A stretch of DNA of 32,000 bases from Nitrosopumilaceae archaeon (GTDB lineage: Archaea > Thermoproteota > Nitrososphaeria > Nitrososphaerales > Nitrosopumilaceae). Position numbers and translations under genes: made by a program. The notes beneath the pieces are model-generated. The model worked only from the letters and a program-made list of their open reading frames with translations. It was not told the DNA's origin and searched no databases. The stretch lies in contig CBDCCK010000002.1 of assembly GCA_965214835.1 (NCBI GenBank), positions 3,054,430-3,086,429 of the forward strand, given 5' to 3'. Shown here piece after piece: positions 7,732 to 17,488 of the stretch (position 1 is its first letter; each line of letters begins with the position of its first letter).

Positions 7732-7782
7732 GTACGAGGTCACCTGCCCCCATCAGCCAGGCACGAATTAGCGACCTAGTAC
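7732..7782 (+). mobile_element. MITE-A short copy
   Basis: gtacgaggtcacctgcccccatcagccaggcacgaattagcgacctagtac. Both arms are related to the 8114 and 16744 copies, with the interior shortened. Confidence 0.5.
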
Positions 7783-8987: not shown

Positions 8988-9097
8988 CTTCCACTTGCCC
9001 TCACCCCTAATCCGGATTCCTGCGAGCTATCTGTCGACTTGGGCCGTATTGAATTATTCATCTTCCACTTGCCCTCACCCCTAATCCGGATTCCTGC
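8988..9097 (+). repeat. Two identical 36-bp direct repeats separated by a 38-bp spacer
   Basis: cttccacttgccctcacccctaatccggattcctgc occurs at 8988..9023 and 9062..9097. Each copy contains the 10-bp palindrome aatccggatt. Confidence 0.9.
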
Positions 9098-9823
9098 CCT
9101 GTCAGCTGTGTTCTTACAACTCAAGTCCCGCCCGCAAGAGTCTACCCCACAGGCGATACTGCTGGCCCGAGCCTTGATCACCATGCCCACCACGCCGCAT
9201 ATTCTGGAGGTGATAGACTCTTACGTCCCGCCCCCCAGATAGCTTCAAATAGATTCGGCGCTGCATGGGTCATAGGCGAGCTGGAGCACGACACGCTGCC
9301 ACGGCAGAGGAAACTCCTCCCTCCATACAGGAAATGTGACCTGGAGATGGGTAACCAGAGATGGTTGGAAACAGAACAGAAAACCAATCCCGCTGAAATT
9401 ACGATGACGGTGAAAAGCCCGAGATGTTCAGCTGCGGAATGAAAAATCTGCCCCACATGGAGCAAGGCCAAACAGAACCCCAAGTGCCTGTACTCGGTTC
9501 AGGTAGGCTGCAAAGCGAAATATCGTGAAAACAGAAGGAGGGTTACTCCCAGCACGCCTGGAATCTTTTTCCCTTGGCACGGTGCAGACGGTTTTCCCTC
9601 CCTCATGTCACATGCATGCATTCTGTCAGGTCCAGTCCTGCAATCGACGCACCAAAGGTCTTTGATCATCAAAAAGCGTCCTCATACACAGCTTGCGCCC
9701 ACATGAGCTCAAGAACTTTTGCTCGTCACCACATGCAGGACTCGTCGGATCCTGCAGGCACCTAAAGAGCAGAAGCTGCTTTGTGTGGCACTGACTTGGG
9801 ATTTGTCCTGACGGATTATGCAT

Positions 9824-10159
9824 TCATCCCCTTTTTCTCACTACCGCACCTACAACAGAGACCAGCACTCCGGCGATAAAGACTCCAATGCCAACTTTAC
9901 CCAGTACCCCAAATATGGGCAGGCTCTTTCCAACCTGTGGAGTAATCGGAGTGCCCGAGCTGCCAGATCGCATGACCACTTCGGGGGGGACGGGTACGAT
10001 TGTAAGCAAGCCGACAGCCATGCTGGCAACAAAGAGGCCAATTCCCGAGACAGACACGATGAGGCCGGCCCGCAGCAGATTCAATGCTATGTCATTCTCA
10101 AGGCTAGAAGGAGCCTGTGTGATCCTTGCAGACAGAAGCGCCGCACCTGCAGTCTGCAT
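9824..10159 (-). CDS. Small two-TM membrane protein (hypothetical)
   Basis: From the internal ATG at 10159 the product has two clear hydrophobic helices (GLIVSVSGIGLFVASMAVGLLTIV and IFGVLGKVGIGVFIAGVLVSVVGAVV). It overlaps the 3' end of the upstream gene in another frame. The long ORF form reaches 10306. Confidence 0.45.
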   Translation of the reverse strand: MQTAGAALLSARITQAPSSLENDIALNLLRAGLIVSVSGIGLFVASMAVGLLTIVPVPPEVVMRSGSSGTPITPQVGKSLPIFGVLGKVGIGVFIAGVLVSVVGAVVRKRG

Positions 10160-11480
10160 CACAAAGACACGAGCCCTGCATCGCGCAATCGCATTCGCTG
10201 CCAATATCGGCAGACGCCGCACAGCCACACGCTGCCTCCTGCTGAGCAGAGTCCAGCTGGGGGCTCTGTGGCGGGGGCGTGCTCTGTGAGCTCGACGAGT
10301 CCTCATAGACGCTGCGTGTCTGCTGATAGTCTGACTCGTCTCTCAGCTGCGCCTCGCCGCGGTTGGTCTTGTAGCCGCCGGAGCTCTCGCTAGTAGAATA
10401 TCCTACCAGCCGGGACGGGTCGATGCCGCTTTGTCCCTGGCCCTCCTCCTTTTTCATCTGCCTGTTGCTGTACACGAAAAATGCGCCTCCCCCGACTGCT
10501 GCCATACCGGCCATCCCGTAGACGATGGCCACGGGAAAGTCGCCGGTCGATGTTTGTGCATATCCCTCCGGAGGAGTAGGCAGTATGCCAAATATTTCAA
10601 TGCCGTCAAGACTGTCCAGCTGTGCAAACCCGATTGCGTGGACGTTTGCATTGTCAGCGGACTGGACGGTTCTTACCGTGTACTCTTGGTCGGCGCTAAA
10701 GGTTGCATGGAACTCCCGCTCCACCTGGATCCCCTCCCGGATGCTGCTCTCGCCCATCGTATAGCTGGAAACTACAAAGCCTGCAATCTCATCGTCCAGG
10801 CCAAACTGGGCGGCGTCTGCGTTGATGCCGGTCGGATCAAACAAAAAATGCCAGTTAGCTAGCGGCTGATCCCTGATAAAGTCAGCATTGATTAAATTAT
10901 CATGCAGTAGATCCTCTGCCTCGGAGCCACTGATGAGCGATGCCAGTGCTGGATCTTCTGATTCTATTGCAGAGAACGGATGGTTGATTTCAATGCCGTC
11001 GGCAATTACAGGATCCTGGATGGATATGCCCCTCCAGCCCATGTCAACTAGCGCCGGGTTCCGGCCGTCTGCTGCACGAATTACATAGCTTCCAATCTCT
11101 CCGGTGATCAGGATTTGAAAGTCAACTGCCGCAGAAACCGGGTTTCCCTTGAGGGTCGCAAGATAGTCCACGGCAAGGTTCGAAACCTGGGCATGGCTGC
11201 CGTCGCCTACAAGGTTTGCGTTGATTTGGTTGGCAATTGTCTGGGCCTCGGCAGGATCTGCAGTTGCGGTGACAGTCCAAGAGTCGCCGCGAAGGGAGTC
11301 TGCCACCTGTCCGCCGTCGGGATACTCGATGAAGATTGTTTTTTGATACCTGATCTTAAATTCGGATGTGTCGGTGTTTGGGTTGATTCTTGTCTCCAGT
11401 TGCGCGGCCTCGGCGGCAGAGAAGGTGCCAAATACGAGAATCGCCGCCACTAAAACCGAGAATAAAGCTGCCCCTTGCAC
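10104..11480 (-). CDS. Single-pass surface protein with a Cys-rich (CxC) cytoplasmic tail, unknown function
   Basis: 458-aa ORF with a GTG start and signal peptide QGAALFSVLVAAILVFGTFSAAEAA. It has a TM segment FPVAIVYGMAGMAAVGGGAFFVY, a Ser/Gln-rich linker, and the tail ACGCAASADIGSECDCAMQGSCLCDADCRCGASVCKDH. Confidence 0.8.
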   Translation of the reverse strand: MQGAALFSVLVAAILVFGTFSAAEAAQLETRINPNTDTSEFKIRYQKTIFIEYPDGGQVADSLRGDSWTVTATADPAEAQTIANQINANLVGDGSHAQVSNLAVDYLATLKGNPVSAAVDFQILITGEIGSYVIRAADGRNPALVDMGWRGISIQDPVIADGIEINHPFSAIESEDPALASLISGSEAEDLLHDNLINADFIRDQPLANWHFLFDPTGINADAAQFGLDDEIAGFVVSSYTMGESSIREGIQVEREFHATFSADQEYTVRTVQSADNANVHAIGFAQLDSLDGIEIFGILPTPPEGYAQTSTGDFPVAIVYGMAGMAAVGGGAFFVYSNRQMKKEEGQGQSGIDPSRLVGYSTSESSGGYKTNRGEAQLRDESDYQQTRSVYEDSSSSQSTPPPQSPQLDSAQQEAACGCAASADIGSECDCAMQGSCLCDADCRCGASVCKDHTGSF

Positions 11481-11592
11481 GAGTCAAATCCTTGGTCACT
11501 TACATTTAATCTTATCTTAAAAGGCGAATAACGATCAGGCTTTGAAAAGGTAATATTGAGCTACATAGCTTACCAGCTCGTTCTAAAAGAAA

Positions 11593-12513
11593 ATGATTAC
11601 GGTACTATCAGGCGGCACGGGCTCAGTCAAGCTAGTAAGGGGGCTAGTTGCGCAGGACGGCAGCGTCAGCATAGTCAGCAACGTAGGAGACAACTACTGG
11701 CTGTACGGCATGTACGTGTGTCCGGACGTCGACACGGTCATTTACGGCCTGGCAGACATTTTAGACCATGACAAGGGCTGGGGGGTCAAAAAGGACACCT
11801 TCAACTTTTTGAGGCAGATGGAGGTCTTCGGGGAGGAGACTTGGTTTAGGATTGGCGACAGGGACGCGGCAACCCACCTGATTCGGACCAACATGCTAAA
11901 GAACGGAAAAAACCTGAGCGACATTACGAAATGGATGTGTGAAAAGTTTGCAATAAGCGCAAAGATCATCCCGGTCACAGACAACACCATAGAGACTAGG
12001 ATCATCACCAACAAGGGGGAGCTGCACCTGCAGGAGTACTGGGTAAAATACAGGGGCATGGACGATGTCGAGGGGATCCAGTACATTGGGGCAGACAAGG
12101 CAAGGCCGAACCCGGAGGCGGTAAACGCGATTCATGACTCGGATCTGGTGATTCTGGCGCCAGGAAACCCGCTGACCAGCATAGGGCCGATGCTGCAGAT
12201 CAAGGGAATCAGAAAGGAGCTTTCAAAGATCAAAAAGAAGGTGGTGGCAGTCAGTCCGCTGATAGGAGACAAGGCGATAAGCGGTCCGGCGGCAAAGTAC
12301 ATGCAGGCTGCCGGAATCGAGTCAAACGCATACGGGCTGGCAAAGATGTACTCTGATGTTTGCTCCAATATAATCATAGACTCAAAGGACAGGCTGCTCT
12401 CAAAGAAGATCCAAAACTTGGACATGAAGGTATTTGATACAAAGATTACCATGAAGACCAAGCAGGCAGAGGATGCGCTTGCCTCGTTCATCCTAAAACA
12501 AGTCCACGTTTAG
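11593..12513 (+). CDS. cofD: 2-phospho-L-lactate transferase (LPPG:FO transferase), coenzyme F420 biosynthesis
   Basis: The N-terminus MITVLSGGTGSVKLVRGL and a 306-aa length are typical of CofD. cofC follows after a single nucleotide. Confidence 0.85.
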   Translation: MITVLSGGTGSVKLVRGLVAQDGSVSIVSNVGDNYWLYGMYVCPDVDTVIYGLADILDHDKGWGVKKDTFNFLRQMEVFGEETWFRIGDRDAATHLIRTNMLKNGKNLSDITKWMCEKFAISAKIIPVTDNTIETRIITNKGELHLQEYWVKYRGMDDVEGIQYIGADKARPNPEAVNAIHDSDLVILAPGNPLTSIGPMLQIKGIRKELSKIKKKVVAVSPLIGDKAISGPAAKYMQAAGIESNAYGLAKMYSDVCSNIIIDSKDRLLSKKIQNLDMKVFDTKITMKTKQAEDALASFILKQVHV

Positions 12514-12514
12514 C

Positions 12515-13162
12515 TTGCTCAAAATAGCGGTAATCATACCAGTCAAGACGTTTTCAAGGGCCAAGTCTCGGCTGGACCTGCCGCAAAAAGTCAGGAGCAG
12601 CCTGTGCGAGCTGATGCTAGATGAGCTGCTGCACACGCTGTCCATGTCGCCGCTAATTGAGAGGACAATCACAGTCACGGGGGATCCGGCGGCCGGAAGG
12701 ATTGCAGAAAAATACGGGTCGGTAGTCATCCCAGACAGAGAAGAGTCTGGGGTAAACGAGGCAGTCTCCCTGGCAGACGACCATGTAAGGGAGAACGGCA
12801 TAGGGGCGACCATAGTGCTGCCGCAGGACATACCGTTTACAAAAACCCAGGATATCGACTTTTTGCTCAGGGTTCAGATTCCGCCGAACTTTGTGACGGT
12901 TGTGCCCTCGCGCAGGTTTGACGGGACCAATGCTCTGGTCCGAATGCCCCACGACATCATGGGCACGTCATACGACCAGGACAGCTACCGGAGCCATGTC
13001 GAGGCTGCAAGGAGGCATACGCGAAACTGGTCTGTCCTGTTTGTAAGGAGGATGATGGTGGACATAGACGATGTCGAGGATCTAAGATACGCTCTAGAGC
13101 GAAACGAAAAGCCGGAGCTGTGTGAGAGGATCAGGAAGCTGGTAGGCCTGGAGGCGCCATAA
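12515..13162 (+). CDS. cofC: 2-phospho-L-lactate guanylyltransferase, coenzyme F420 biosynthesis
   Basis: TTG start. The N-terminus IAVIIPVKTFSRAKSRL is typical of CofC. 215 aa, tightly coupled to cofD. Confidence 0.8.
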   Translation: MLKIAVIIPVKTFSRAKSRLDLPQKVRSSLCELMLDELLHTLSMSPLIERTITVTGDPAAGRIAEKYGSVVIPDREESGVNEAVSLADDHVRENGIGATIVLPQDIPFTKTQDIDFLLRVQIPPNFVTVVPSRRFDGTNALVRMPHDIMGTSYDQDSYRSHVEAARRHTRNWSVLFVRRMMVDIDDVEDLRYALERNEKPELCERIRKLVGLEAP

Positions 13163-13163
13163 A

Positions 13164-13412
13164 GTGGCAAGCGCGCGCAAGACAGGAGCTGGAATTGGCT
13201 ATGTTTATTCCGTATATGATCAATATCCCGGTGATAGTGGTTCCCCGGTTGGAAAGCTAACTGGAGGGGATTTCACTGTACATGGAATGCACGTAGGTCT
13301 TGCTGATTCAGGTTTCTACGACCAACCAGCTTGCTCTCAAGGCGGCAAATATTCCAAGTTTATCACGTACGACAAAATACAAAGCGTGTTAGGCATGGTA
13401 GGAAAGACATGA
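13164..13412 (+). pseudogene. C-terminal fragment of a trypsin-like (S1-type) serine protease
   Basis: Contains the catalytic-serine motif PGDSGSPV followed by VHGMHVG. The frame opens only at 13146, so the His/Asp-bearing N-terminal domain is absent. The stop overlaps the next start in ATGA. Confidence 0.45.
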
Positions 13413-14116
13413 GGCATCCTCCTTTTTTTCTTTTTTTACTATTGCTTGTGCCAAGTACGGTGATTTTTGCCGAGTTGCATGATGAAGAAATGACATCCTC
13501 TAAACAAACCGAGGCATGTGAGTACCATTCAAAGTATCCAAATGAGTTATTCAATTTATGTGAATACAAACTGGATTGTGAGGGATTAGAATTTACTTAT
13601 GAAGGGGGAAGAAATGTATTGGAAAAAGATTATCTCACTCAACTATTTTTACAAAATAATCCGTGGGGAAGTATTAACACTGGAAATATAATAGGAAACT
13701 TTGATGTAGGAAACGTTTGGTTGGTTGGTGATAAAATCCATCATGAAGATAAAAATCTGGGAATTGGCATGAACATGTGTAATGATATCACCAGGTATTC
13801 CTATCAGGATTTGATTTTACGAATATATGAAAAAGGAGACCATGGAAAAGCAGTTTTAAATGTGGAAGGGAAAAACATAACTGACTCGGCGGTACTGGCA
13901 GGAGAAGGCAAATATGAAATTGCTAAAAGAATCATCGGCAAGCATGCCTCCCCAAAAGTTCAGATAAATGAATTTGGAATTCCATCAAACAGGATACACT
14001 GTAATGACGGGCTTGAATTATTTGAACGTAGCAACAATGTCCTTGTATGCATCAAACCTCAAACATTTGAAAAACTGGTGGAAAGGGGATTCGACATTAA
14101 GCACTATCCTTCATAG
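13409..14116 (+). CDS. Secreted hypothetical protein encoded in a low-G+C islet
   Basis: Signal peptide MRHPPFFLFLLLLVPSTVIFA from the ATG at 13409 (the longest ORF starts at 13331). About one-third G+C by eye versus well over half in the flanks. C-terminal motif CNDGLELFERSNNVLVCIKPQTFEKLVERGF. Confidence 0.75.
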   Translation: MRHPPFFLFLLLLVPSTVIFAELHDEEMTSSKQTEACEYHSKYPNELFNLCEYKLDCEGLEFTYEGGRNVLEKDYLTQLFLQNNPWGSINTGNIIGNFDVGNVWLVGDKIHHEDKNLGIGMNMCNDITRYSYQDLILRIYEKGDHGKAVLNVEGKNITDSAVLAGEGKYEIAKRIIGKHASPKVQINEFGIPSNRIHCNDGLELFERSNNVLVCIKPQTFEKLVERGFDIKHYPS

Positions 14117-14199
14117 CCGGTCTTCCCAGTAGCCCGAAATTGCCAATTTTGACCGAGGCAGATCAACAAGGTGCGTCCCAGAAGGCCAGTAGTCCATAG

Positions 14200-15326
14200 G
14201 TATGAGATCACCTACCCCTAGATTATTTTGGCCGCCTCAGCCGCGATGGACTTGCCCTGCATCCCCCACGTCTACACGCATGTATTGAACCATCCATGCC
14301 TTTCCATCCAGGCCAGGCCGCCCTTGATCTGGCCGCTTATCTTGAATTGAAGCACGACGGGGCGCAGCGCCCGCTCTGCACCGTTGCTGGTGGGCTCGAC
14401 ACCCTCGTATTCCAGAAACGCAAACATGTACGGCAGGGCCCTGTGCATCCTCTTGAGGGGGTGGCTCCGGCGGGCCGCCCCCATGCATCAACGTATCCGA
14501 ACAGTATATTCTGCATGTCGGTCTCAAACCGCCGGCGCAGATCCGGCGAGTGCCGCCCCATCAGCCCGCTGGCCCTGCCCATCCCCGTCCTCTCCTCGAG
14601 CTCCCAAAGACTTTCCTCGGACAGCTTGTCCCAGCCCTCAAGACACCCCTTGGCATCCTCGAACAGCTGCTGCATCTGCCGGTACAGGACTCCTGCAAAC
14701 ATCGGGCGCCCTTTTTCTGCGATATATACGGGAGGAACCGCAGCTCGTGCTCCCAGCACCGCCGGAGCCTTCCCAACAGCCCGAGCTCCTCGTATGCGGG
14801 ATATCCGTCCGATGTGACGACGCCCCAGTACCCGCCCATGTACTGGTTCAGGATCCTAGCGCTCCTAGTGTCTGCATGTATCATGAACATGCCCACCGCC
14901 GGCAGCATGGCCCGCGTCCATCCCAGCCTGCCTGCCAGGTTGATCCCCGTCTCGTCTATGCAGACTGTCTTGGCTTTTTACCTTCTTGGCGATGTCCTCT
15001 GCAGGCTCCATGGCATCAGAGACGCGTCCCGGGATGTTGATTATCGTTGACTAGCATGTATCCTCATGGGACCGGATAAGCGTGCGATCCTGTTGCTGGG
15101 AATGTCATCTGCGCGCGGCTCGGTGGCGATTGACTGCGCTCTTGCCGTAGCCGCCGCTCTTTGGCAGGTCGTTGGGGACAGCATCATCTCCCTGAGCGAT
15201 TCTGCAGATGCCTAGATCTCACAAACTATGAGAGGCTGGCCTTTCATAATGCCTATCCGGCGCTCACACATGGATCAGTATCGCCATCAATGTTTAACCT
15301 GCTACGAGGTGCAGGTGATCTCATAC
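14200..15326 (-). mobile_element. Decayed, internally shortened IS66-like element with both TIRs retained
   Basis: TIRs are gtatgagatcacctacccct (14200..) and the reverse complement of gaggtgcaggtgatctcatac (..15326), 14 bp perfect and 18/20 overall. Minus-strand frames read CIDETGINLAG, GYWGVVTSDGYPAYEELG, RCWEHELR and FLEYEGVEPTSNGAERALRPV only across several frameshifts. Confidence 0.7.
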
Positions 15327-15384
15327 GATGCCGTGCCGCAGCTCAGAGCAGCAGAGTCAGGCCAGTCAAAAACAGATGCGGTGC

Positions 15385-16374
15385 CTAGCGGGCTTCCAGG
15401 CCGGATCGCCTTGCATTGAAACGGCCAAGCACCAAGAACAGGATGGATATTGCGCCGGATGCGACAAAAAGCAGCTCCAGGCTGCCAAGCAGTGAGTGGG
15501 AGTACGCATCATCCAAGGAAATGTCGTTTACAAACGCGACAAAGTAGACGTATGAGAGGACGAAATAGTTTGTAGCCCAGTGCAGCATTATTGCGGCCAA
15601 CAGCCCGTACCGATAGTATACCCAGCCAATGATCACGCCGGCGGCGGATGCCTGGGCAAACTTGCCACCGCCCCATGGCTCGCCCGAAAGCACGTGGGCC
15701 AAGCCAAACAGGATGCCGACTGCCGCAATCAGCGCAAGCACGCGCCCCGGGCCTGCAGCGTCCAGATTCTCAAAGGGATTCCACAGGGATGCTGCAAGCC
15801 TCCCAGGCGAGGCCCTGCGGCCGAACATCAGGTAAAGGGGCAGTCCGATCAGGATTACGCGGAACCCGATCTCCTCTACGAGGGGCGCCAGGCTGGCCGA
15901 AAAAAACTGCGTCAGATCGTTGTCAAAACTCGGAGGCTCTATGGCTATTCCAAAGGAGCCCTGAACCGCATCGACTACGGCAGAGACAACAACCAAAACC
16001 CCAAACCACTGAAGCATCGAGACCAGGTAGTTTGACGAGGAGTCCCTTCCAGATGACAGGATGAGGGCAAGCGACTTGATGAAGTTTTGCCCGGGGCCCA
16101 GGATGCCAATGGCAAACAGGATTACAAACACCGACCAGATCACGATAAAGCCGTCCCCAATTGCAACCTCAAACGGAAGCGGTTCAAGCAGGGACTCGAT
16201 CCCAGAATAGACGTACGCCAGCGGATACTCGTGCGTGATATCCCGGCCGACGTCGGAATTGAAAAAGACGTACGCCCCGACCGGAAAGGACAGCAGCATC
16301 ATTCCAAAGATTATCGACAGTAGTGCAGAGTGCGGAATCCCAAGTCCCCGGAGTATTCTGTCAGTTTCCTGCAA
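15385..16374 (-). CDS. CPBP family (CAAX/Abi-type) intramembrane metalloprotease
   Basis: Multi-TM 329-aa ORF with motifs EEIGFRVIL (EExxxR), FGLAHV (FxxxH) and HWATNY (HxxxN). TTG start 7 nt after the SUI1 stop. Confidence 0.85.
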   Translation of the reverse strand: MQETDRILRGLGIPHSALLSIIFGMMLLSFPVGAYVFFNSDVGRDITHEYPLAYVYSGIESLLEPLPFEVAIGDGFIVIWSVFVILFAIGILGPGQNFIKSLALILSSGRDSSSNYLVSMLQWFGVLVVVSAVVDAVQGSFGIAIEPPSFDNDLTQFFSASLAPLVEEIGFRVILIGLPLYLMFGRRASPGRLAASLWNPFENLDAAGPGRVLALIAAVGILFGLAHVLSGEPWGGGKFAQASAAGVIIGWVYYRYGLLAAIMLHWATNYFVLSYVYFVAFVNDISLDDAYSHSLLGSLELLFVASGAISILFLVLGRFNARRSGLEAR

Positions 16375-16381
16375 TTCTGGT

Positions 16382-16690
16382 CTAGTGCAGCTCTATTGAG
16401 GACTCTGCAAACCCCAAGTCGACAAGCGTGTCCTTGAGGGTATCGCGATGATCGCCTTGCAGGAAGATGTATCCCTCCTTGGCGGTGCCGCCGCACGCGT
16501 ACTTGTTCTTCAAGTCCTTTGCGACGCGCTCTAGATCGTTTAGCTTTGGATCAAGGCCCTCAATCATGGTGCCCTTTTTCTTAAAGCGGCGGGTTTCTAG
16601 CCGGATGATAATTTTCGTACTGTCCTTGGCTAGGTCGCCACAGGCACACAGATCTTCGGGAAGGCCACACGTATTACAAATTACTGCCAT
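16382..16690 (-). CDS. sui1: Translation initiation factor aSUI1 (eIF1 homologue) with N-terminal Zn-ribbon
   Basis: MAVICNTCGLPEDLCACG followed by IRLETRRFKKKGTMIEGL...LKNKYACGGTAKEGYIFLQGDHRD. The ORF track form starts at 16714, but the ATG at 16690 is preferred. Confidence 0.9.
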   Translation of the reverse strand: MAVICNTCGLPEDLCACGDLAKDSTKIIIRLETRRFKKKGTMIEGLDPKLNDLERVAKDLKNKYACGGTAKEGYIFLQGDHRDTLKDTLVDLGFAESSIELH

Positions 16691-16743
16691 TCGTTCGTTA
16701 CAATTCCCCCACACACACTATTAAGCCTTTTAGTCGCCACTGG

Positions 16744-16834
16744 GTATGTGGTCACCTGCCCCTATCAATAGGCATGAATTGGCATGTACAATGTGATTTT
16801 CGTACCTAGATAGCAAGGGGACGTGACCACGTAC
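16744..16834 (+). mobile_element. MITE-A copy (best preserved)
   Basis: gtatgtggtcacctgcccctatc ... gatagcaaggggacgtgaccacgtac. The arms are inverted repeats, total length 91 bp. Confidence 0.7.
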
Positions 16835-16841
16835 GCCACTG

Positions 16842-17488
16842 GGCAATTGGCTAGGTTGAGCACACGGGCCCGGGTGGGAAGCAGGCACGAATCCTATGCT
16901 GCCGCAGGCACCCAGGCCAGATTGGCCGGTGCATCCGGCCCGCGCATGCACCATGTCCTGATGCACGATATCAAGGTGCCAAACATCCCCCATGCCGGCA
17001 GGGATGCGCAGCCTTTACCGCACGCCCCCCTGTATGACTGCCCTGCGCAGCGCCCTCTCGGCCCTGCTGTTGGTAGGCTCCATGCCCGGATACCTGACAA
17101 AGGTGAACAGGTACGGGCCGCAGCTGCAAGCGTGCCTCCAAGGCTGTACCACATCTAGGCATACTGAGCGGCTAGGGCCTCTGCGGGCGATATCATTTCG
17201 GTGCAGTCGTGATCGGGGGGCATGTGCTTGGCCTCGCAGAGTACGGGCTGCAGACGCCTGTACAGTGATTCCCCGGTACATCCCTTGGGTACATGCTGCC
17301 CGGTAAGCCAGACTATTATCCAATCCCCGTCTGTGATGGCCTCATCCTTGCCGGACTCGGCCATGGTGCGGGCCCAGCTCATCGCGCAATATCTGGGATC
17401 CCTGAGCCAGGCAATGGGTCAGGCATGACCGGGGCGCTTATCGCGTGGTGATCAAAAATTGGCCTTGTGCTCGGCCCAAGCGGTTACA
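16842..17488 (-). pseudogene. IS66-like transposase remnant (C-terminal third), truncated element
   Basis: Minus-strand frames read LFTFVRYPGMEPTNSRAERALRRAV and TLISCIRTWCMRGPDAPANL across frameshifts. The subterminal 42-bp block 17447..17488 recurs at 17987..18028. Confidence 0.6.

Follow-up and report, generated by a model that had tools for sequence, protein, structure and literature searches.

Positions ~13182–14199 of the window (the whole 32,000-nucleotide stretch that we analyzed) very probably derive from a foreign cassette of two genes, now trimmed, which landed in the short spacer between cofC and a convergent CAAX protease gene. The host (G000) is a thaumarchaeal ammonia-oxidizing genome of 3.22 Mb and 52.6% G+C. 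What is left of the cassette is the 3' stump of a protease gene, followed by an intact gene for a secreted partner protein. The region shows every hallmark expected of a horizontal islet: deviant composition, an empty syntenic site in relatives, discordant divergence and a flank of mobile elements.

The native surroundings of the islet could be defined on both sides. On the left lie cofD (11593–12513, recognized by Pfam) and cofC (12515–13162, plus strand), which encodes 2-phospho-L-lactate guanylyltransferase (Pfam CofC, E = 1.2e-15). The cofC gene is full length; its product has 215 residues, of which 1–211/213 align with the same-genus orthologues, and its TAA stop is at 13160–13162. On the right, the native neighbor is a gene for an Rce1-like CAAX protease (15385–16374, minus strand; Pfam Rce1-like, E = 2.4e-13), placed there by synteny with three genomes of the same genus (G001, G003, and G004). 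In these genomes a surface protein gene, cofD and cofC are followed by the convergent CAAX protease gene and SUI1. Vertical orthologues of the islet genes were looked for beside cofC in relatives, and the junction was empty in all three congeners.

The two stop codons, of cofC and of the CAAX protease gene, are separated by 131 bp in G001 and 166 bp in G004 (−43 bp in G003), versus 2222 bp in the window, where the gap holds the islet, a MITE remnant and a decayed copy of an IS66-family element. The segment at 15327–15384, just left of the CAAX protease stop, is presumed to be the remainder of the native intergenic DNA, by position only, and is unalignable to relatives. The G+C content of the cofD–SUI1 locus itself takes values of 39%, 46%, 54%, and 66% within the genus (L039 in G001, L040 in G004, L041 in G003, and window positions 9000–17000), and cofD protein identity is still 75–91% across these divergent loci.

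A sequence-only reading of the DNA had described a low-G+C islet, and windowed G+C and GC3 analyses bore this out. The G+C content is 36.3% for the partner gene and 47% for the stump, against 55% for cofC, 59% for the IS region and 52.6% for the genome. GC3 is 0.32 for the partner and 0.39 for the stump, whereas the long ORFs of the genome have a mean of 0.65 (sd 0.09). The partner value is 3.5 sd below that mean and under the first percentile (0.343) of 1236 long ORFs; only 1.4% of the 700-bp windows of the genome have a G+C content of 37% or less.

The frame that follows cofC is open from 13146 and has its first start codon, a GTG, at 13164, one base past the TAA. The resulting ORF of 82 codons (13164–13412, plus strand, with a TGA stop at 13410–13412) encodes PGDSGSPV...VHGMHVG and corresponds to about the last 76 residues of a 431-aa S1 peptidase of the alpha-lytic protease kind, P0005, whose residues 356–431 it matches with 64% identity. 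The proposal that this frame is a protease C-terminus of about 80 residues without the His/Asp half was therefore correct. The stump keeps only the Ser of GDSGSP and is devoid of the His, the Asp, the pro-region and the signal peptide. Of the two-barrel chymotrypsin fold it covers just the final four strands and the C-terminal helix.

By itself the stump gave zero Pfam or NCBIfam matches, and a word-indexed protein search retrieved nothing beyond the protein of the window itself. When the genome was searched in six frames with P0005, no second protease copy emerged, just the stump and matches at the level of signal peptides. Without His and Asp, and with no other copy in the genome, the stump cannot be a protease. 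Its product, with neither the His-Asp-Ser set nor the two-barrel fold of S1 peptidases, is a pseudogene fragment. A truncation on arrival or by later deletion, as had been suggested, agrees with the survival of just the last 76 protease codons.

The nature of the missing part became apparent from the full-length relatives. P0005 is encoded on a 2.25-Mb contig of 37% G+C (L002), directly 5' of the gene for P0002, a close homologue of the partner (69% identity). The P0005 family is small, with only seven representatives at E < 1e-30 among 1.8 billion proteins; a member from Nitrosopumilus ureiphilus (P0010) is named peptidase S1 in UniRef. P0005 gave no protease or other meaningful Pfam match, trypsin models and pro-domain included. 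In the family alignment (A2, 18 members), H237, D302 and S374 are near-invariant, and the A2 profile, stump row included, matched Thermobifida protease A (PDB 2pfe), alpha-lytic protease and streptogrisin B with E values from 6e-11 to 1e-6. An AlphaFold model of P0005 (pLDDT 76.5) retrieved alpha-lytic protease, Lysobacter L1/L5 and TFPA in Foldseek, with E ~5e-10 and TM scores of 0.70–0.73.

In P0005 and its kin, about 200 residues precede the protease domain, and the P0005 model shows helices at 5–122 and then a small strand–helix unit. Judging from these profiles and from the predicted structure, the full-length proteins constitute a new branch of alpha-lytic-type proteases in archaea. The GDSGSP match is thus upheld through the full-length family, by both profile (E = 6e-11) and fold (TM 0.70–0.73). 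The family is of the alpha-lytic S1 type; Pfam recognizes neither stump nor partner. As a separate observation, residues 1–50 of P0005 contain a signal/anchor pattern, KTILFASLIAAMILPFS, that recurs at 60–90% identity on otherwise unrelated proteins, some of them with metalloprotease Pfam domains; from its sequence, the segment looks like a common lineage-specific export signal.

The start codon of the partner gene (13409–14116, plus strand) overlaps the stop of the stump (ATGA), as had been noticed, and its 235-codon frame, complete and supported by homologues, encodes a Cys-containing secreted protein. The N-terminus is hydrophobic, with a putative signal peptide at about residues 1–22, read by eye. 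Close homologues show 86% (L054), 69%, 59%, and 56% identity, and the family has five invariant cysteines.

The C-terminus of the partner (residues 182–228, encoded at 13952–14092 on the plus strand) is a WING-49 domain (NCBIfam NF058652; 49.2 bits versus a cut-off of 22, E = 4e-13). WING-49 gave 20 matches in the host genome and 0 in 14 control genomes. It is a two-Cys motif ending in ..RGW, present on about 20 secreted proteins of the host, where it may follow the signal peptide, lie internally, stand at the C-terminus or be repeated in tandem. Sites include G000:C2:1589731–1590738, 3159382–3160389 and 2275745–2276161, and the set comprises two near-identical 336-aa paralogues and one 139-aa truncated copy. 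Among variants of the partner family (L053:4221–5090 and P0004, at L003:6001–7179), one has a tandem WING-49 and another a C-terminal extension of 160 aa, rich in charged helices.

Outside WING-49, profile and fold searches gave the partner no relative of known structure or function. Its alignment, compared with PDB profiles, yielded nothing below E = 1.8 and no similarity to inhibitors, and a scan of species-representative genomes with the same alignment found no relative. Two candidate assignments were discarded. A Bet v 1/PYL-like fold, proposed by Foldseek on an AF2 model with pLDDT 66, was too weak (E = 0.085, TM 0.2), and the idea that the partner is a copy of the protease pro-region foundered on a profile–profile match limited to the region of signal-peptide cleavage.

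Pairs of a full-length protease and a partner gene in other genomes, which the sequence-only reading had advised looking for, do exist. When species-representative genomes were scanned with a 9-row protease alignment, six full-length protease loci emerged, all in Nitrosopumilus sp. or Nitrososphaerota MAGs of 33–36% G+C, and each of the six had a partner homologue (30–34% identity) directly 3', often with overlapping stop and start codons. Full cassettes are present at about seven or eight loci, including L002 and L048–L053, in low-G+C genomes of the Nitrosopumilus type. Gene 1 of the native cassette would encode an exported, alpha-lytic-protease-like S1 peptidase of ~430 aa, consisting of an N-terminal signal or anchor, a long helical pro-region and a His-Asp-Ser domain. 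Gene 2, directly downstream, would encode a secreted partner of 200–290 aa ending in WING-49.

A close homologue of stump or partner was found in none of the 40 relatives and 200 family genomes searched. The nearest copies lie elsewhere, either in low-G+C genomes (L002, L003, and L047) or in a distant genome, where the position differs. The latter copy (L054, in the 2.83-Mb genome G217) shares 88% DNA identity with window positions 13191–14132, sits between unrelated housekeeping genes at a different locus, and forms a low-G+C patch there too. Comparison of the copies confines the start of the foreign DNA to the 28 bp at 13163–13190: DNA homology sets in at 13191 against L054 and at 13215 against L002, and protein homology to P0005 begins at about residue 356, near 13182, which is ~20–28 bp past the cofC stop. 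In L054 the protease has lost residues 1–269, its frame is broken and its 3' end is split by a MITE, while the partner is intact at exactly 235 codons.

Between G000 and G217, the synonymous divergence (pS) is 0.275 in the islet, whereas cofD and cofC are saturated (0.86 and 0.87). The sister copy is therefore of much more recent date than the divergence of the two genomes. Donor-type loci have 33–37% G+C and a GC3 of 0.30–0.34, equal to that of the partner, implying that no amelioration has occurred. Together with the empty site in G001, G003 and G004 and the GC3 contrast (0.32 versus 0.65), these values sustain both parts of the initial proposal, namely a horizontally acquired fragment and a low-G+C relative as its source.

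Two other origins fit these data poorly. One is an ancestral cassette that the relatives have lost, in favor of which G217 and G000 both carry it and have mobile-element families in common. However, the loci differ between these genomes, the synonymous divergence of the islet is 0.275 against saturated housekeeping genes, GC3 falls short of the genome mean by 3.5 sd, three congeners have nothing at the site, and no homologue occurs in the 40 relatives or 200 family genomes. Vertical inheritance, which we regard as highly improbable, is already contradicted by the present data. Still less credible is an assembly chimera, i.e., a low-G+C contaminant read joined to the cofC region. The source genome is metagenome-derived and the composition changes abruptly, but the junctions recur in two other public assemblies (L045 and L046), one with a contig of 7.7 kb and one with a SPAdes-style contig from short reads at 44x coverage, both 99.7% identical to the window with scattered SNPs. 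The arrangement is thus fixed in three assemblies of the species and, given this concordance, is not an assembly artefact.

The right border of the horizontally acquired islet differs from what had been described. The islet was said to abut the terminal repeat of an IS66-like element, but that repeat starts at 14200, 83 bp past the partner stop, and a degenerate MITE-like remnant of 77 bp (14118–14194, with the terminal motif GTCTTCCCAGTAG at 14120–14132) lies in between. The remnant has CATAG on both sides, at 14112–14116 (which includes the partner stop codon) and at 14195–14199. Homology to L002 stops at the partner stop, while homology to L054 continues for 16 bp, into the MITE terminus; L054 has a complete 121-bp MITE at the same place, again bracketed by CATAG. 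The MITE interiors differ between the window and L054, and other MITE copies show no common target sequence. Since CATAG surrounds both copies in spite of this lack of a common target, independent insertions are less likely than a shared ancestral one, and the insertion after the partner gene probably predates the split of the window and L054 copies.

The MITE family has members of ~117–121 bp with termini CAGTCTTCCCAGAAG (e.g., G000:C2:477202–477318 and 499452–499568). Its core motif, GTCTTCCCAGWAG, is found at 65 places in the host genome, often as inverted pairs ~104 bp apart; counts of the full terminus are 57 for the host, 88 for G217 and 36 for the congener G002 (76% complete). Another genome, G277, has five MITE termini, including two inverted pairs ~1.28 kb apart that may represent the autonomous parent element. 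The 121-bp MITE inside the protease remnant of L054 (L054:3526–3646) is flanked by a 7-bp duplication, AAGTTTA, and the window retains this target uninterrupted at 13356–13362. G000, G002, and G217 have the same IS66-family element and MITE family in common; both families are absent from ~297 other family genomes and from the low-G+C, cassette-bearing G218 and G219. Evidently, the three genomes that share them exchange DNA.

The decayed IS66-like element itself was confirmed (14200–15326, minus strand). It measures 1127 bp versus 1635 bp for intact copies, its 20-bp terminal repeats (14200–14219 and 15307–15326) are intact, and its remnant ORF matches Pfam DDE_Tnp_IS66 with 26 bits against a cut-off of 23.1. 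The copy is 89% identical to at least eight intact 1635-bp copies, relative to which it has lost ~500 bp and the reading frame. The intact copies have a 516-aa ORF, terminal repeats of ~20 bp starting with GTA, and 8-bp target duplications; the Pfam domain, the GTA... repeats and the 8-bp duplications are all IS66-like, and we take the element to belong to the single-ORF type of the family, the ISBst12-like group. At least four of the compared copies are 98.5–99.5% identical to one another with an open 516-aa transposase frame, and the element looks recently active (examples are G000:C2 2052495–2054129, 1545630–1547264, and 675078–676712). Further sites resembling the IS terminal repeat occur in the window at 7732 and 16744.

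The window copy has no target-site duplication; its 8-bp flanks, GTCCATAG and GATGCCGT, are unrelated, pointing to a later rearrangement at one end. A missing duplication is the residue of an IS-adjacent deletion or of inter-IS recombination. We also considered that the incoming cassette had recombined via a shared IS66 copy, homology having anchored one end; this was unsupported, there being no IS66 end near L054.

The following sequence of events would account for the locus. The island would once have been larger, and deletions would have cut it back on both sides, one beginning exactly at the IS end and the other halting at the cofC stop codon, because going any further would destroy cofC. 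The partner would now be transcribed by read-through from cofD–cofC and its translation coupled through the stump ORF, by way of TAA-A-GTG and then ATGA. The product would be exported and work without a protease encoded beside it. We consider the partner to be probably a live exported protein, transcribed with cofD–cofC and coupled through the stump frame.

Whether the partner is under selection cannot be read directly from its divergence. Between the window and L054, dN/dS is 0.24 for the partner and 0.285 for the stump (57 alignable codons; Fisher p = 0.01 against neutrality). As the stump value is as low as that of the partner, most of the divergence predates the breakage, when both genes were intact, and the partner dN/dS is consequently no proof of selection after the loss of the protease. 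This is one reason to take seriously the chief alternative, albeit an unlikely one in our estimation: the islet would be neutral cargo without a function in this host, the partner being no exception and uninterrupted solely because it arrived recently. The unameliorated GC3 and a partner without recognizable catalytic or binding fold are in line with this idea. On the other hand, the partner has kept exactly 235 uninterrupted codons in two independent hosts, where the adjacent protease has lost 355 codons (window) or 269, with a frameshift and a MITE (L054). Moreover, two further loci (L003 and L047) have a close partner homologue and no trace of a protease, so that four of the five close-partner loci are without an intact adjacent protease, and all three assemblies of the species have the same arrangement.

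It is even less likely that selection maintains the stump as a small ORF, whether for handing ribosomes from cofC to the partner or for an 82-aa peptide that has its own role. Its frame opens 1 nt past the cofC stop, it has kept the native ATGA overlap, and its dN/dS against L054 is significantly below 1. Yet the counterpart in L054 is frameshifted and split by the 121-bp MITE, hence dispensable there; the putative peptide lacks a signal peptide and, out of a two-barrel fold, spans just four strands and one helix; and a coupling role would leave the amino-acid sequence unconstrained.

As to what such a partner does, our best guess, tentatively held, is that it binds proteases of the alpha-lytic-like family, as an inhibitor or guard protein. 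A protease-binding partner would stay useful against the enzymes of neighbors. Among solved structures, the protease is closest to Lysobacter L1/L5, enzymes that lyse bacterial walls; self-protection from such lysis would be superfluous for an archaeon, which weakens the inhibitor idea.

The full-length relatives of the stump resemble alpha-lytic protease and its kin (the Lysobacter enzymogenes enzyme, L1/L5, TFPA, and streptogrisins), a group that we take to correspond to MEROPS S1E, in their His-Asp-Ser order, the GDSGxP motif and the fold, as well as in a long N-terminal extension that precedes the protease domain. In the archaeal family, though, this extension is a long coiled coil that does not match the known alpha-lytic pro-domain, and the P0005-family protease always travels with a WING-49 partner gene. 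To our knowledge, the bacterial enzymes have no such partner gene.

The locus also recalls bacterial CDI and Rhs loci, which contain orphan modules of a toxin stump and an immunity gene. The common traits are a C-terminal fragment of a secreted effector gene followed by a small intact partner, mobility, and occurrence in several contexts. In contrast to those systems, the window genome has no full-length system with which the stump could recombine, and the partner is predicted to be exported rather than cytoplasmic; neutralization is hypothetical.

As a genome feature, the islet is an ordinary one, a piece of recently acquired and already trimmed foreign DNA amid many IS and MITEs, and the event is of an ordinary kind. 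At the same time, the locus provides a clear and dated case of gene flow between archaeal genomes that are only distantly related, are rich in mobile elements and have IS and MITE families in common. The cassette behind the islet is modestly interesting. We found no paper on an alpha-lytic-type protease in Nitrosopumilus or on WING-49, and a conserved two-gene cassette of an alpha-lytic-like enzyme and a WING-49 partner in Nitrosopumilus-type archaea is undescribed.

That four of the five loci with close partner homologues are without an intact adjacent protease is a testable hint at a role of the partner in its own right. A more specific suggestion, one that we rate as rather improbable, is that the WING-49 partner is a dedicated extracellular inhibitor or guard against secreted alpha-lytic-type proteases, in which case the recurrence of a broken protease beside an intact partner would be an archaeal counterpart of the orphan immunity genes of bacterial CDI and Rhs toxin systems. 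If this were true, ammonia-oxidizing archaea would be using such proteases on one another or on their own surface.
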